Source of the DNA: a virus
Length of the DNA stretch: 43,089 nt
Direction: 5' to 3' (one strand)
Virus record (IMG/VR): IMGVR_UViG_3300042934_000110
Coordinates: 1-43,089 of that record
Below the pieces are notes generated by a model that had not been told where the DNA came from, made no database searches, and was given only the letters and a program-made list of their open reading frames with translations. The translations under genes and the position numbers were made by a program. Positions 2,941 to 20,990 of this stretch are shown in pieces. Positions within the stretch are counted from its first letter, which is position 1, and each line of letters opens with the position of its first letter.

Positions 2941-5900
2941 ATGGCAGGTTCGTTGAGAGTAAAACCGGAGGATCGATTACCTCTGGACGCGTTGCAGAAG
3001 GCGCTGCACCCCGAGGTGGCTACAGGCTTGGACCAGTTCCCGGACGTAGACGGCGGGCCTGCTGGCGTGACGGTGCAGGAGAAGTACCAGCGCATCCAAG
3101 AGCAACCCATTGAGGCTGCCCAGGTCGAGGCTAACGACAGCCTCGCAGACAAGGTAAACGCCGCCGCGCAGGAATCATACACAGGGTACATTCTGGAGGC
3201 TACCGACCGTGCGTTCGAGGGGCAGTACCGCGACTACGATCCAACGTTCCAGGGCTCGCGTAGGGCCTTGGAGCTGGTCCAGCGTATGGGCCTGGAGGCG
3301 TCCGAGGAGAACTTAGAGCTGCTGGGTAGGGCAGGTACCGCCGAGGACCAGTTAGAGATAGCCCAGGGGCTCCAGCAGCACCAAACCAACCAAGAGATAC
3401 TGAGCCGCCACGGCGGTTACGCCCTGGCCTCGGGTATGCTAGACCCCGCGTCATTGGTGGCAGACTTCGCCACGTTCGGTACCGTCAAGGCCCTTAAGCT
3501 GGGGCGCCTTGCCTCGGCTGGTCTGGGTGCCACTGTAGGTACCGGGCTGGTGGGCGCAGCGGACGCAGCGGGCAAGAGTACCACCGGGTTTGACTACGTG
3601 CTAAATGCTGCCCTTATGGGTGGCTTTGGTGCCCTGTTCGGTGGCGGTGGTATTGGCGGTGCAGGTGGTGGCGGTTGGGCAGGTAGTATGCGTATCCCTG
3701 GCACGGACGGCAAGATCGCCCGTGCAGTGAACGCCTTTACGTCGGAGACCGACAAGCTAGCGAAGGCCACCCCAGAAGCTGGGCCGCTCATGTCCACGCT
3801 GGTAGATGACCCTGTGCGCCGAGACGGTCTACTGACCAACAACAACGCAGCGAGCTACCATCGCCGATTTACCAACGAGGCGGACGGGTACATGCAATCC
3901 TATGACTCGATGTTAGAGGACGGTTTGCGCGAGCAGCAAGGGTGGTCGTTTGTGTCCCGCAAGCTGGACCTGTCCGGCAAGTACGGGGCGGCCCGCGATG
4001 ACTTGAACAAGGAAGTGGCGGCAGAGCTGCTGCGGCGAAACGATGAGTTCCAGAAGTTCGGTAACGTGTCACCGGCCCCGCGAGGTAACCCGCTTGTGCA
4101 ACGGTTGGCCGATGAGAGCGACCGTATCCACGCGCGTATCGGGGAGCAGGCCAGAGAAGCCGGTGTACGGGGTTTCGAAGAGTTCACGGCACAGCCTGGG
4201 TACTTTCACCGGAGCTGGAACGACTCCCTTATCCGTGGCATGGATAACGCGGAGAGCGGACTACCTAAACGCCTTATCGCGCAATCCGCCCTAGCGGGTA
4301 TCAAGGGCATTGACGCAGACGATGCAGACGCCATCGCGACCGCGTTGATTCAACGCGTCAAGGACAAGGCGGCAGGCACCCGGTCGGACTTCCTCGGCGG
4401 CTTGGGTAAGACTGACACCGCATTCATCCGAGAGGCGCTGGAGCAGGCGGGTGTAGGGCAAGGCAGGCTCGATAGCATCATGTTCAAGATCGAGCAGAAG
4501 GCGTCGGACCAAGGCACCACCAAGTACGGTAAGCATCGCCTGAGCTTCGACATGACCGCCAGTATCAAGGGTGCGGACGGCAACATCTACCGCATGACGG
4601 ACCTGATCGATACCGACCTCGACAGGGTTATGGAGAACTACACCAGCAGCATGGCAGGCCGCATGGCGCTGGCTAAGGCCGGTGTGGCTGCGGATGACGC
4701 GGGCCTGGAGTTGTTCAAGCGGAATTACCTTGAATCAATCAAGACACTACCCCAGGCGCAACAGCAGGACTTGCTGTTGCAACTGGACGGCCTACTTGGT
4801 GACTTCACCGGCAACCGCCCGGAACCAAACGTACTAGGCCCTGTCGTGCAGCGGGTCAAGGCCCTAGCAGACGCGACCATGCTCTCTGGCTCCGGGTTGT
4901 GGCAGGTTGCAGAGTACAGCACCATCGCCGCCCGGCACGGCCTGTACGAGACTGGGAAGCAATTTATGAAGTCGTTCCCCGGCATCCGTAACGTGTTGAA
5001 CAACGCGAGGACTAACCCGGACTTGGCGGACGAGTTGCGCACTGTACTGCACCTCGACCTAGCCCGTGATATCCGGGTGCGTCCATGGAAGCGTCAACAC
5101 GACGTGAACTTGGCCGCAGGTGACACAGTGCTAGACCGGCTCCTGCACGCGGGCAAGCAGGCGGTACCGTACCTCAATGCCATGAAATACGTGCACGCCA
5201 ACCAAGCGCGCCTGAACGCCAATCTCGTACTAAACAAGATGGCCCGCGCCGCTAAAGGTGACGCCAAGGCGTTGGCGACTATCAAGGCGTACGCGCCCGA
5301 TATCGACTGGGCGAAAGTACAGGCCGCAATGCAGGCTAATGTTACATACAGTGGTAAGAACGCGTCGGCTATGAACTGGGCCGGATGGTCGCAGGACGCT
5401 ATAGATGAGACGATGAACGTGGCCCTGCGCATGATGGACGACACCCTACTTTTCGGCCGTCCAGGCCAAGGGGCATCGTTCGCCCGCTCCGCTGTAGGCC
5501 AAGTACTCGGCCAGTTCCAGTCGTTCGTTTCCTTCGCCCACAACAAGACACTACGCGGCACCCTCCAAAACGGCGGGCCGCGTGCCCTCGCCACCGTGCT
5601 CGCCTTTCAGTACCCGATGACCTTCCTAATGGTATCGGTGAACGAGGCGCGCAAAGGTGACTTGGATTTGTCGGACAAGGGTTTGCAGAAGGTCGCAAAG
5701 GGTGCCATCGGGTACACAGCCGGTTTGGGCTTTATCAGTGGCGCGGCGAGTATCGCCGGGCTGACCGGTGGCCGCGCAGGTATGTCCGTTCCCCTCACAG
5801 GGATCATGGATGCACCGGGGCGTGCCCTCGGTGGCGCGAACAAGATGTTTAACGGGGAGTTCCGCGAGGGGTCTGCCGATATTGGTAAGGCCGCAACGCA

Positions 5901-17558: not shown

Positions 17559-17951
17559 ATGTCCCAAGAAGTTCCCGCGTTCGTACTGATTACCCTGCCG
17601 CTGGGTTGTGAGCGGGCCGAGCGTTCCGCGCTCCGCGATGCTGGGTTGCCGGTGTTCATCAAGGGCCTGAGTCTCTTAGATCAGGCTAACGTGTACGCCA
17701 TTGCAGCCGACGCTATGTACAGCACGGCGCACCGCGACAGCATATTGGATATGCTGTCGGTACTGGGCGTTCAGAGTATCATGCACGTAGGCGCCGACCG
17801 CAGTGTAGCGCTGTGCCGCAAGGACAATAACTACCTTCCTATTGGTGCGCCGGTAATCGGTACCTGGGAAGAGACGAAGCAAGAGGAGCGCGGGTTCAAT
17901 ATCCGTGGCCGATCATTCCGAATCAAACACACTCAAAAGGAAATCGCATGA
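17559..17951 (+). CDS. Hypothetical early protein (130 aa)
   Basis: ATG with ACGGAG RBS. Confidence 0.7.
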   Translation: MSQEVPAFVLITLPLGCERAERSALRDAGLPVFIKGLSLLDQANVYAIAADAMYSTAHRDSILDMLSVLGVQSIMHVGADRSVALCRKDNNYLPIGAPVIGTWEETKQEERGFNIRGRSFRIKHTQKEIA

Positions 17952-18097
17952 AACTTTTCGCCGCTCTAATCCTCGCTGCCATGTTGACCGGCTGCGTGTT
18001 CCAACCCATCCATGTGGAAGTGTACAACGCCGTGAACGTCGAGGATTCCGACGTAGGTTTGGATGCTTCCCGCAACGTTAACGAGGCTATCGACTAA
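17948..18097 (+). CDS. Small predicted lipoprotein (49 aa)
   Basis: ATGA overlap with the upstream gene. MKLFAALILAAMLTGC is a signal peptide plus lipobox (LTGC). Below the ORF-track cutoff. Confidence 0.6.
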   Translation: MKLFAALILAAMLTGCVFQPIHVEVYNAVNVEDSDVGLDASRNVNEAID

Positions 18098-18267: not shown

Positions 18268-18756
18268 ATGTTCAAGTCTTCCATGTTCTCCGCTTTCGCT
18301 GCCCTGTCCGTCCTGATGACCGCCCAAGCCGAAGGCGGCGAAGGTGCTGCCCCTACTGTGCCGCAGACCCGCGCCGAGAAGCTGACCGCCAAGGCCAAGG
18401 CCCTGTTCGACCTCGTCACCGCCAAGACCGCCGAGTACCACGATGTCGTTGCCGAGCTGCAAGCCATCGAACTGGTTGCCAACGTCGCAGCCGGTGATAC
18501 CGTGAACGGCAGTACCGGTATCGGTGCCAAGAAACAACTCGTGTCCGGCGTCGTCCTGGGCGTCTCCGAAGACGAGAAGGGCAAGCTGATCAAAGTGCAG
18601 TCCGGTACCGGCTTCGACACTACCGTGTTCACCCTGCGTGCTGCGCAAATCACCAGTGTCGTGCCCGCTGTTGCCCTGGAAGAACAGGCTAGTGACGAGG
18701 TTGTGGAACAACCGGCTGAAACTCCGGCGTTCGATGCTGAAACCTATGCCGCGTAA
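18268..18756 (+). CDS. Predicted secreted/periplasmic early protein (162 aa) with acidic C-terminal tail
   Basis: AAAGGA RBS. MFKSSMFSAFAALSVLMTAQA-EGG looks like a Sec signal peptide with an AQA cleavage motif. Strongly biased, GC-ending codons. Confidence 0.75.
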   Translation: MFKSSMFSAFAALSVLMTAQAEGGEGAAPTVPQTRAEKLTAKAKALFDLVTAKTAEYHDVVAELQAIELVANVAAGDTVNGSTGIGAKKQLVSGVVLGVSEDEKGKLIKVQSGTGFDTTVFTLRAAQITSVVPAVALEEQASDEVVEQPAETPAFDAETYAA

Positions 18757-18832: not shown

Positions 18833-19018
18833 ATGAACATTCCTATGTCGAATGCAAGTAAGGCCGCACTCCGTAACGGGTGGGCGTACCGTACACCGCT
18901 GGTTGTGATGCTGCATATACGCACGTTGAATCCCCGCGCTGCTAATGAACTTGAAGGCGTGATAACAGTTAGTCCGGGCGGCGTTGCGATAGTTCCCGAA
19001 CTTTGGTGCACCCGATGA
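18833..19018 (+). CDS. Hypothetical early protein (61 aa)
   Basis: GAGGA RBS upstream of the ATG. Confidence 0.55.
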   Translation: MNIPMSNASKAALRNGWAYRTPLVVMLHIRTLNPRAANELEGVITVSPGGVAIVPELWCTR

Positions 19019-19156
19019 ACGGTACAGAGCAACTCATGAGCGGCACGATTGTCGTTCTTCTTTTCCTGTGCTGGGTTATCGGAAGTTCCCGCGACCGGTA
19101 CAAGTGCCGGTATGACATGGTCTACAGCAAGGCCGCCGAACTGGAGCGAAAGCTTA
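19015..19156 (+). other. Coding-like segment (TM helix, MNGTEQLMSGTIVVLLFLCWVIGSSRDRYKCRYDMVYSKAAELERKLN) with no stop of its own
   Basis: ATGA coupling to the upstream gene, higher third-position GC than the competing frame, and a clear hydrophobic helix. This frame then runs on as junk-like sequence to 19629 while the +1 frame becomes coding at 19157. Confidence 0.4.
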
Positions 19157-19867
19157 ATGCAGCAACTGTTAAAGAACTATCAACTAGCCGTAGCCGTGGA
19201 GATGCATCTGCACCCCGATTTGCGCGCTCGACTTCATACGCTGCGGGATATCGTGACGGTGTTCGAAGCGAACAGTCACGACCCTGTGGGTACTTTGACC
19301 TCCCTACATCGCAAGCAACTTGCTGCACTGGTGTGGCTACAGCGGTGCAAAGTAGCGGCGGGCGTGTACAACCTCCCACTTCTTTCGCCGACGTTCTGCG
19401 AAATGATCCGCACCGAAACGGCGGATTGGCCGTTCACCGGGAACTCCCAGGAGCCGGAGCATCTGCGGTGCCCAGAGGCTGTGCTGCACGAGGTGTGCCC
19501 GCAGCTGGGCCGAACTGTATGGGAGCTGTTCCGTGCGGCCCTTGGCCCTGTGTATACGCTGATCCATGGAACCGTACCTACTGCTGTGGCCGCCGCGCAA
19601 CTGACGCGGTACACCCTGCAACGGAATAGCTTGGGCGGCTGGCATCAAGACGAAGACAGCGACTTCACTGCCGTCGTTGAGCTGGCACCCGAGTTGCATA
19701 TCGGTGGTGGGACTGACGTAATGTCGGCGCCGCTTACCGTGACGTCTGTACCCACACTTGCCAAAGGGCACGCCCTGTTGTTCTGCGGCAAAACTACCCA
19801 CCACCGAGGAAGGCCCATCACGGAAGGCGTGCGGGATCTACTCGTCTACTGGACAGAAGCCAAATGA
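19157..19867 (+). CDS. 2OG-Fe(II) oxygenase superfamily protein (prolyl-4-hydroxylase-like)
   Basis: GGWHQDEDSD (HxD) and GKTTHHRGRPITEGVRDLLVYW (distal His plus Arg) match the 2OG-Fe(II) oxygenase facial-triad pattern. The start is uncertain (ATG 19157, ATG 19112 or TTG 19049). Confidence 0.7.
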   Translation: MQQLLKNYQLAVAVEMHLHPDLRARLHTLRDIVTVFEANSHDPVGTLTSLHRKQLAALVWLQRCKVAAGVYNLPLLSPTFCEMIRTETADWPFTGNSQEPEHLRCPEAVLHEVCPQLGRTVWELFRAALGPVYTLIHGTVPTAVAAAQLTRYTLQRNSLGGWHQDEDSDFTAVVELAPELHIGGGTDVMSAPLTVTSVPTLAKGHALLFCGKTTHHRGRPITEGVRDLLVYWTEAK

Positions 19868-20481
19868 ACCAGTCCCTGCCGCTGTTCCCTCTCCAGGCAC
19901 CAGACCCAGAGGTCGGTTACCGTGAGGCTATCGACCTCGTGGCGGATATCTTGCACGTCTGCAACGATATCCTGCACGCGCAGTACGTGGCAGTTGCCGG
20001 TGGTTGCGCCAGGGATTTGGCGCACCGCTTGGCGCCTCGGGACATTGACCTCGTACTGTGCCCGCGCCACGAAGATGATGAGTTCGTGTTGTTGCAGGCA
20101 CTGGAACTCGGCCTCGGATACAAGATCGTGCAAGAGTTTGAACGCGTCAGTGGTTCTGCTTTCCTGCACGACACGAACAACACCTCTGATTACGAGGCCC
20201 TGGAGCACGACAACCGGTGGTCTCGTGTGGTCAAGTTAGAGGCCCCTGGCAAGCTCCCGGTAGACCTGTTGGTCAGTACCTGTGACAGCCTGGAGGACGC
20301 TATCAGCCTGTTCGACTTCAACCTCAATCAGTTCGCCATCTTGCGCCCGTTCACCGCGCCACGTTTCTTTGGCGAGTGCCAAGGCGAGCTTATCCAGAAC
20401 CGCGAGGCGAGTGTTTCGCCGGAGCGTAAAGCCCACATCCAAACTATCGCCCTTAAACTGGGCTGGAGCGTTCAAGCATGA
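19864..20481 (+). CDS. Truncated CCA-adding enzyme / poly(A) polymerase-family nucleotidyltransferase (head domain only, 205 aa)
   Basis: VAGGCARDLAHRLAPRDIDLVL matches the GGxxRD...DxD Pol-beta NTase motif of class II tRNA nucleotidyltransferases. LFDFNLNQFAI resembles the RDFTINA motif. ATGA overlap with the oxygenase gene. Confidence 0.7.
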   Translation: MNQSLPLFPLQAPDPEVGYREAIDLVADILHVCNDILHAQYVAVAGGCARDLAHRLAPRDIDLVLCPRHEDDEFVLLQALELGLGYKIVQEFERVSGSAFLHDTNNTSDYEALEHDNRWSRVVKLEAPGKLPVDLLVSTCDSLEDAISLFDFNLNQFAILRPFTAPRFFGECQGELIQNREASVSPERKAHIQTIALKLGWSVQA

Positions 20482-20990
20482 AATTCACTGACCTGACAAG
20501 CTATCATCGCAGCATGTTGACCATGCTCTGCACAGGGCAGACCTTCTCCACTGCCGAACTGGGCAGAGGCTGCAACCCGTCCCTCAAGCCCGACCAAGCA
20601 GCAGCTTCTTTGCTACGCCTGCGTGACCTGGGTTTGGTGTTCTCCAATCAGAAACCGCCCGGTCAGGCATACGCTATGTGGAAGGCTAGCGAGTACGGGC
20701 AAGCTGTGTTCATGTCTCGGCCCGCCGAAGTAACGATGCCCTGTAGCAACCCGGTGCTGGACGCCCTGCCTACCGCAGAACCGGCCAAGCCGTACCGCGT
20801 ACTGCGCGTCAGTGACGCCGAAGTCACCCTCTTCGGCACCAAGTTCGCCACCGAAGAGGAGGCGGACCGCTTTGCCCGTACGAACATCCACAACGCTGGG
20901 CCGGACGTGCGGAACTACGTCGTCACCGTGCACGCGGCTATGAAGTTTGTTGCGCCTGTGCACGCCTGTGTGGAACGCATCGACCTGTAA
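20478..20990 (+). CDS. Hypothetical protein, possible winged-helix DNA-binding N-terminal domain (170 aa)
   Basis: ATGA overlap with the NTase gene. The N-terminal SMLTMLCTGQTFSTAELGR...LLRLRDLGLV is wHTH-like. This is a weak call. Confidence 0.55.
   Translation: MKFTDLTSYHRSMLTMLCTGQTFSTAELGRGCNPSLKPDQAAASLLRLRDLGLVFSNQKPPGQAYAMWKASEYGQAVFMSRPAEVTMPCSNPVLDALPTAEPAKPYRVLRVSDAEVTLFGTKFATEEEADRFARTNIHNAGPDVRNYVVTVHAAMKFVAPVHACVERIDL

Follow-up and report, generated by a model that had tools for sequence, protein, structure and literature searches.

We analyzed a block of three consecutive genes, encoding an oxygenase, a nucleotidyltransferase (NTase), and a winged-helix protein, in a 43,089-bp stretch of viral DNA (IMG/VR record IMGVR_UViG_3300042934_000110; here, "the window" means this whole stretch), which is a complete, circularly permuted podophage genome. 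With moderate confidence, we read the block as mostly ordinary: members of three recognizable phage families lying side by side as accessory genes, in a lineage-specific arrangement within a Krylovirinae-like Pseudomonas phage, without forming a three-step pathway. The block itself is no new system, and its members belong to known, uncharacterized families. What stands out is the pairing of the NTase with the C-terminal domain of the third protein, together with a link between the NTase and the phage protein Gad2. The three open reading frames (ORFs) are as follows.

19157-19867, plus strand: ORF1, the oxygenase, 236 amino acids (aa)
19864-20481, plus strand: ORF2, the NTase, 205 aa
20478-20990, plus strand: ORF3, the winged-helix protein, 170 aa

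The distribution of these genes among related phages was determined in a synteny survey, in which the three proteins were compared with 66 loci (59 IMG/VR loci retrieved with the NTase profile, together with the window's relatives). The oxygenase gene adjoined the NTase gene in 6 of the 66 loci, with the following distances between them.

L003, L004, L006, and L007: 0 nt
L008: 38 nt
L009: 164 nt

In 30 further loci, apparently from T7-like Pseudomonas phages, the oxygenase was encoded in the early region, 7 to 9.6 kb upstream of the NTase and in a different expression class. The rest of the loci had no detectable oxygenase in the stretch covered, many of these stretches being short. MR5, pphageB21, and L005, which belong to the same NTase subclade as the window, carried the NTase without an oxygenase, and in phage phi-2 a 376-aa gene intervened between the two. 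The NTase was also found without the oxygenase in phages of Klebsiella, Dickeya, Yersinia, Aeromonas, and Pseudomonas aeruginosa. These observations fit an oxygenase and an NTase that are independent accessory genes and abut in some lineages.

An earlier reading of this DNA, made from the sequence only, had proposed a two-step modification in which ORF1 hydroxylates a nucleic acid or protein and ORF2 then nucleotidylates the new hydroxyl. The genes are indeed adjacent and overlapping in the window, L003, L004, L006, and L007 and near-adjacent in L008 and L009, and both are frequent in Pseudomonas podophages. However, the 7- to 9.6-kb separation and the oxygenase-free NTase loci make such a pathway unlikely, and the oxygenase is closest to enzymes that hydroxylate lysine in proteins (see below). 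Gene distribution thus largely refutes the two-step proposal, which we consider highly improbable. The pair is syntenic in some genomes, but a functional link between the two genes was not supported.

The positions and motifs quoted for the three plus-strand genes in the sequence-only reading were confirmed, including ATGA start/stop overlaps at 19864-19867 (ORF1/ORF2) and 20478-20481 (ORF2/ORF3). Shine-Dalgarno-like GGAG motifs lie at 19143-19146 and 20465-20468, and the ORF1 ATG at 19157 is backed by homologues that start MQQLLKN, MQRLLQN, and MQHLLKD. Homologues of each of the three genes were present on other phage contigs at 36 to 89% identity, and synonymous change in the oxygenase was far above amino acid change (in the C-terminal third, 2/79 amino acid versus 16/74 synonymous differences relative to L003); together, these results indicate that the genes are real. 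The block had no nucleotide-level match in a megablast search of 50,697 phage records, its relatives being found at the protein level only. The earlier description of the genes as translationally coupled stands with respect to the overlaps themselves. However, 4-base overlaps are frequent in this compact genome (22314/22317, 23943/23946, 29235/29238, and 30819/30822), so the ATGA overlaps alone are no sign of shared function.

ORF1 carries the motifs WHQDED and HHRGR and matched phrog_61 ("2OG-Fe(II) oxygenase," where 2OG is 2-oxoglutarate; E = 3e-16), although it fell below Pfam gathering thresholds. A profile built from 16 homologues matched the lysyl-hydroxylase domain of human LH3 with an E value of 1.3e-14 and mimivirus L230 with an E value of 1.6e-8, compared with 0.12 for prolyl 4-hydroxylase and 0.68 for a TET-like enzyme. 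The original assignment to the prolyl 4-hydroxylase-like group of 2OG-Fe(II) oxygenases was therefore upheld and refined to lysyl-hydroxylase-like. The following active-site features were identified.

19643-19651, plus strand: HxD iron-binding motif H163-Q-D165, present in 16/16 homologues and aligned with the HxD of LH3 and L230
19802-19834, plus strand: distal iron-binding H216 (codon at 19802-19804) through 2OG-binding R226, both invariant and aligned with the H...R of LH3

Because H163, D165, H216, and R226 are invariant in all 16 homologues and in register with LH3, ORF1 is apparently an active enzyme of the protein-hydroxylase type. Over ~175 aligned residues, it shares with the collagen-type lysyl hydroxylases (LH3/PLOD3 and L230) the double-stranded beta-helix domain with HxD...H...R in register, and, like L230, it is a virus-encoded copy. 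In contrast to LH3 and L230, it is a stand-alone protein of 236 aa without glycosyltransferase domains, and no collagen-like substrate is evident. By tblastn, ORF1 was found in 192 phage records, 187 of them from Pseudomonas phages. As an early gene of Pseudomonas podophages, it would most likely hydroxylate a protein side chain, of either the host or the phage. We rejected a role as a TET/JBP-type DNA base oxygenase, given the E value of 0.68 against 1e-14 for the lysyl hydroxylases. Oxygenase homologues in MT711890 (PlaquesPlease), MT711889 (Waldo5), and PV477980 (Laces98) are labeled "glycosyltransferase," a name probably carried over from the bifunctional LH3 and L230, only the hydroxylase domain being present.

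A second open frame covers the 5' half of the oxygenase gene. Starting in the 139-nt gap 5' of the oxygenase, this plus-strand ORF (19015-19629; +2 frame relative to the oxygenase) specifies a transmembrane helix (TIVVLLFLCWVIG). Its counterparts are as follows.

L003: 3152-3766
L006: 3191-3763
L008: 6319-7041
L009: 167-919
phi-2: SBWP25_0007

In phi-2, this frame is annotated as a 290-aa membrane protein, and the oxygenase call is limited to a fragment of 121 aa. The alternative frame stayed open for 455 to 470 nt into the oxygenase gene in 6/6 related loci, a length attained in 0 to 1.1% of synonymous-codon shuffles, yet oxygenase synonymous divergence showed no drop within the overlap. We therefore did not accept the ORF as a proven overlapping gene, its openness being unusual but its synonymous sites unconstrained; it may be an overlapping gene with an unconstrained tail. 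A programmed frameshift joining the membrane ORF to the oxygenase was likewise set aside: it would need a +1 shift, and no search for a shift site was made.

ORF2 matched phrog_1614 ("nucleotidyltransferase"; E = 4.3e-26), and its AlphaFold2 (AF2) model was of good quality (predicted local distance difference test [pLDDT], 84; predicted template modeling score [pTM], 0.82). The best Foldseek matches of the model in the PDB were class II CCA-adding enzymes (Thermotoga maritima 3H3A; E = 1e-5), aligned over ~200 columns with template modeling (TM) scores of 0.54 to 0.57 relative to the query (TMq) and ~0.29 relative to the target (TMt). The whole of ORF2 was covered, yet by TM score only ~29% of the targets, which are 410 to 460 residues long. 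Lower ranks included poly(A) polymerase, MenT1 (rank 23; E = 4e-4), TENT5, and Pol lambda. By sequence alone, ORF2 had been taken for the catalytic head of a class II NTase with no body or tail domains, on the basis of the motifs GGCARD...DIDLVL and LFDFNLNQF; the motifs, the fold match, and the length of 205 aa all bear this out. No match to ORF2 was detected in Pfam (including PF01743 at E ≤ 1), NCBIfam, or PADLOC or by phmmer against PDB sequences, and its relatives reached 17 to 21 bits on the Pfam PolyA_pol model PF01743, under the cutoff of 23. The conserved elements of ORF2 are listed below.

19999-20049, plus strand: motif A, G46-G47-x-x-R50-D51...D60-x-D62 (catalytic carboxylates), invariant in 121 homologues
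20263-20265, plus strand: D134, probable third catalytic carboxylate to judge from the nucleotidyltransferase fold, invariant in 121 homologues
20311-20334, plus strand: motif-B-like FDFNLNQF, with D151, N153, N155, and Q156 invariant and L-F in place of the RR of RRD

Invariant positions in the 121-homologue alignment were G46, G47, R50, D51, P58, D60, D62, R118, D134, D151, N153, N155, Q156, G170, and R188, and ORF2 appears to be catalytically intact. Neither of the two substrate-reading motifs is present in its canonical form. In class II enzymes, the RRD of motif B reads the ribose 2'-OH, and the EDxxR of motif D serves as a protein template for base selection. Of RRD, ORF2 keeps D151, the arginine positions being occupied by L149 and F150 (F150 is at least 90% conserved). 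A weak local alignment with Escherichia coli Cca (score of 40 versus 28 ± 4.7 for shuffled sequences) sets "LEDAISLFDFNLNQFA" opposite "LEDDLKRRDLTINALA," a pairing in which both motif B arginines are replaced by L-F. No EDxxR is present; following "VSP" at the corresponding position is a contracted "S-P-E-R" with the invariant R188, a possible counterpart of motif D. Motif A, the sole ORF2 stretch that matches by sequence, aligns with the human, Planococcus, Thermotoga, and E. coli CCA enzymes, and the ORF2 profile matched E. coli Cca in motif A only (79%). Compared with class II CCA-adding enzymes and poly(A) polymerases (3H3A, Aquifex aeolicus 3WFR, E. coli Cca, and PcnB), ORF2 has the same head-domain fold and motif A and retains D-[FL]-[TN]-x-N from motif B, but it is half as long, has no body or tail, and carries a hydrophobic pair in place of the motif B arginines.

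One proposal suggested by this fold is tRNA 3'-end repair, in which defense nucleases that target the anticodon or the acceptor would clip host tRNAs and ORF2 would restore their CCA or terminal nucleotides. The closest solved folds are those of CCA-adding enzymes, motif A matches those of the human, Planococcus, and Thermotoga enzymes, and many databases name the homologues "tRNA nucleotidyltransferase." Moreover, no tRNA genes were found in the window, and a phage without its own tRNAs relies on those of its host. However, ORF2 has no tRNA-binding body or tail, the RR of motif B and a canonical motif D are missing, and the PolyA_pol model is not matched at its cutoff. In addition, a homologue of ORF2, Gp22 of Klebsiella phage fHe-Kpn01, was toxic by experiment when expressed alone in E. 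coli (PMC7291057), which is unexpected of a repair enzyme, and the NTase gene lies in the DNA replication module in every lineage examined. On balance, tRNA repair appears improbable.

The NTase family is large and almost uniformly small in protein length. More than 160 clusters, mostly 180- to 190-aa proteins of Pseudomonas podophages, were recovered with the ORF2 profile, and an exhaustive HMMER search with the ORF2 family returned 2172 clusters (50% identity) at E ≤ 1e-3. Members of phrog_1614 almost always measured 140 to 230 aa (150 representatives). By tblastn, the family was present in 217 phage records with Pseudomonas, Klebsiella, Aeromonas, Dickeya, Yersinia, Proteus, and other hosts, and in BFVD the same small NTase fold was found in podophages of a dozen host genera. 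Both phiKMV ORF16 (205 aa, annotated as a nucleotidyltransferase in the helicase-ligase interval; hhalign probability, 98.5%; E = 1.7e-15) and fHe-Kpn01 Gp22 (98.7%; E = 2e-16) matched ORF2. They are likewise stand-alone proteins (182 to 205 aa) with GGxxRD, DxD, a third Asp, and FD[FC]NLN, are placed in the replication module, and belong to PHROG 1614, "Poly A polymerase head domain-containing protein" of Autographiviridae. The NTase gene was found in the following positions.

T7-like Pseudomonas phages: between the amidase gene gp3.5 and the primase-helicase gene gp4
fHe-Kpn01: after the DNA polymerase gene
Ahp1: between the ligase and polymerase genes (PMC5014404)
phi-2, MR5, and the window: upstream of the primase gene

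The earlier view of the combination as foreign to the canonical phiKMV/T7 gene set does not hold for the NTase, which, as ORF16 shows, is part of the phiKMV set and occupies the gp3.5-gp4 slot in T7-like Pseudomonas phages. Relative to phiKMV ORF16 and Gp22, the window NTase falls in a subclade (36 to 98% identity) of P. syringae/P. fluorescens-type phages, in which the gene precedes that for the primase instead of following that for the helicase or DNA polymerase. No ORF3-like neighbor is annotated beside the NTase in phiKMV or fHe-Kpn01. In the T7-like loci L076 to L078 and in PlaquesPlease (gp25/gp26), the NTase gene overlaps the gp4 start by 14 nt, and one T7-like genome with the NTase sits within a 1.6-Mb Pseudomonas weihenstephanensis assembly contig.

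A second toxic protein is related to ORF2 at greater distance. Gad2, a phage protein of 400 aa, has an NTase domain, is an experimentally verified inhibitor of the Gabija defense system, and is itself toxic (10.1101/2023.05.01.538930). Precomputed matches to the Pfam family PF26128 ("Gad2"), marked weak, are recorded on ORF2 homologues, including the 98%-identical P0001; the Pfam copy that we scanned apparently did not contain PF26128, as Gad2 itself obtained no PF26128 match. When the ORF2 family was aligned with a profile of nine Gad2 N-terminal domain sequences from the supplement of the same study (10.1101/2023.05.01.538930), hhalign gave a probability of 95% (E = 3e-8) over 97 columns, spanning a common "FDF[TN]" variant of motif B without RR. 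Gad2 (PF26128, Bacillus phage SPbetaL7) thus resembles ORF2 in having a homologous NTase domain at the profile level and in being phage encoded, and both Gad2 and the ORF2 homologue Gp22 are toxic on expression. It differs in its ~400-aa length with a large C-terminal extension and in its Firmicutes hosts, whereas ORF2 stops shortly after the NTase core; some of the listed Gad2 homologues are short as well (214 to 278 aa).

These results bear on a DNA-directed role, in which ORF2 would extend DNA 3' ends (phage genome ends or replication intermediates) or synthesize a product derived from nucleotides; in both cases, it would take part in replication or blind defenses that sense DNA ends, such as Gabija or RecBCD. 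In Studiervirinae, Krylovirinae, and Slopekvirinae, the gene always lies beside a primase, helicase, ligase, or DNA polymerase gene. The homology to the Gad2 NTase domain is relevant here, since Gabija, the target of Gad2, has been described as a DNA-end-sensing, DNA-targeting system (PMC12904381), and the loss of the 2'-OH-reading RR of motif B is likewise consistent with a DNA substrate. However, RNA-specific enzymes were the top structural matches, with Pol lambda and Pol mu aligning in the generic core only, and the location of a gene owes as much to the timing of its expression as to its role. We consider a DNA-directed role somewhat unlikely.

The third gene is rare: ORF3 had 23 clusters among 5.8 billion proteins. 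In its AF2 model (pLDDT 82), residues 1 to 80 form a winged helix at pLDDT > 90, followed by a linker and a small beta-beta-alpha-beta domain. The two domains map as follows.

20478-20717, plus strand: N-terminal MarR-like winged helix (residues 1 to 80), identified with Foldseek
20784-20948, plus strand: C-terminal beta-beta-alpha-beta domain (KPYRVLRV...TLF...FARTNI...NYVVTVH), kept beside the NTase

Foldseek aligned the winged helix with ZitR, Rv0880, NadR, and MarR (E = 3.5e-4 to 6e-3; 76 to 87 columns; root mean square deviation of 1.7 to 6.0), so that what had been called a possible winged-helix protein does match MarR-family proteins at its N terminus (E = 3.5e-4 over 78 columns). The core superposes on MarR, ZitR, and NadR, but the MarR dimerization helices that flank it are absent, ~78 of 135 to 146 target residues being aligned. 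By sequence, scans of ORF3 against Pfam, NCBIfam, and PADLOC and a phmmer search of PDB sequences were empty, and a profile search of the PDB gave an insignificant match to YgaV (E = 0.058). The C-terminal domain had no PDB, Pfam, or PHROGs match and is novel, without a known relative.

The NTase and ORF3 genes occur on shared contigs, with a tight and conserved junction. The C-terminal domain, ending NYVVT[LV]H, is kept in all ORF3 proteins that follow an NTase gene (window, L001, and L003 to L009), even where NTase identity is 36 to 39% (L008 and L009). In contrast, the winged helix occurs in two variants that do not track the NTase tree. In L004, an N-terminal swap has lowered the identity of ORF3 to that of the window to 47%, against 87% for the NTase, the C-terminal domain remaining clearly conserved (compared across window 20478-20717, L004 4615-5058, and L006 4612-5067). 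Domains have thus been shuffled within this 170-aa phage protein. ORF3 relatives with a different or absent C-terminal domain lie in early regions without an NTase (Ep4, VSW-3, L070, and L071). Given that the C-terminal domain is kept only beside the NTase while the winged helix varies, the C-terminal domain is the part tied to the NTase. We infer that it docks on or regulates the NTase and that the winged helix is an exchangeable nucleic acid-binding module.

Such a pairing also recalls a toxin and its antitoxin. ORF2 could be a MenT/AbiEii-like toxin that extends the acceptor ends of tRNAs and thereby blocks translation in the host, with an AbiEi-like ORF3 restraining or timing it. The toxicity of Gp22, the presence of MenT1 in the Foldseek list, the AbiEi-like layout of ORF3 (a winged helix at the N terminus and a further domain at the C terminus), and the tight, conserved ORF2-ORF3 junction are all in keeping with this idea. 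However, neither ORF2 nor ORF3 had a PADLOC match at E ≤ 1, in a library in which AbiE models are expected but whose contents were unchecked. The AbiE antitoxin gene lies upstream of the toxin gene, and the winged-helix gene here lies downstream, in the opposite order. The ORF2 fold is also nearer to class II CCA enzymes than to DUF1814 proteins, and most members of the NTase family have no such neighbor. A toxin-antitoxin-like pair is therefore an explanation to which we give little weight.

Under the reading of the block as juxtaposed accessory genes, ORF2 would be a stand-alone "mini" class II NTase that transfers nucleotides, without a template, to a 3'-OH. We tentatively regard host RNA 3' ends (tRNA or mRNA) as its single most likely target; DNA ends are a possible target of lower probability, and the same applies to a protein or small molecule. 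ORF2 may serve host takeover or counterdefense, as the example of its distant homologue Gad2 suggests. ORF3 would be a lineage-specific partner that tethers or regulates the NTase; it might supply the nucleic acid-binding surface missing from the truncated enzyme or restrain its toxicity. A more specific version, in which ORF2 and ORF3 form a two-subunit end-modifying enzyme, is unlikely in our estimation. Here, the C-terminal domain would dock on the NTase while the winged helix recognizes nucleic acid in trans, and the complex would nucleotidylate a specific DNA or tRNA 3' end so as to disarm a host defense (Gad2-like, anti-Gabija type).

Several observations weigh against this account as a whole or in part. 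The oxygenase and NTase are adjacent in about four fairly divergent lineages (the window clade, L006, L008, and L009, with NTase identity down to 36%), and their juxtaposition may carry some selective advantage. The constant position in the replication module and the lost ribose-reading RR could point to DNA or deoxynucleoside triphosphates rather than RNA. The Gad2 link is distant: against a single Gad2 sequence, the ORF2 profile reached only 24%, in motif A alone, and the Gad2 residue aligned with the third carboxylate, D134, is Q. The mechanism of Gad2 was still unknown in 2026 (PMC12904381), and we found no biochemical characterization or defined substrate for any NTase family member in the literature. 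As for the partner, most family members (the 180- to 190-aa class of T7-like and phiKMV-like phages) have no ORF3-like protein, and in the pphageB21 group, within the same NTase subclade, an unrelated downstream gene takes its place, so the partner is not generally required.

The replication and structural genes of the window show ~78% nucleotide identity to the P. syringae Krylovirinae phages pphageB21, phiB1_1, and MR5 to MR18. Sigma-70-like promoters are concentrated at 13.4 to 17.0 kb, and a 156-aa gene and the primase, helicase, and ligase genes lie directly downstream of the block. The promoter cluster and the replication genes thus place the block at the early/middle boundary, just 5' of the replication genes, and its earlier assignment to the early region is approximate only. 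Within the block, we detected no plausibly placed sigma-70-like promoter, the sole promoter-like match, at 20478, coinciding with the ORF3 start codon, and no coding-strand terminator, the two terminator-like matches there both being on the minus strand.

Three further observations concern the surrounding early region. At 17948-18097, the window has a 49-aa ORF opening with MKLFAALILAAMLTGC, a signal of the lipoprotein type that includes a lipobox; the ORF is kept in L003, L004, and L006, has a weak phrog_18517 match, and is a possible small early lipoprotein. The close relative L004 carries an HNH endonuclease gene (PF13392; 539-892) as an insertion in its early region; the window lacks this gene. 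In MR5 (L001), gp14c, on the minus strand at 3627-4421, overlies a plus-strand ORF at 3684-4097 that resembles window 18268-18756 by eye (a common AEKLT...AEY motif); gp14c is probably a miscalled gene in the deposited record.

Among the functionally unassigned replication-module genes of T7-like and phiKMV-like phages, the mini-NTase is one of the most widespread, and many of these phages are candidates for therapy. The profile link to Gad2, together with one toxic member and a dedicated partner, is a concrete lead that could give the NTase family a role in antidefense or host shutoff. Independently of the NTase, the early lysyl-hydroxylase-like gene offers a second candidate, this one for phage-directed modification of proteins in Pseudomonas. 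If true, a two-subunit end-modifying enzyme of ORF2 and ORF3 would give the phiKMV ORF16 family its first function.

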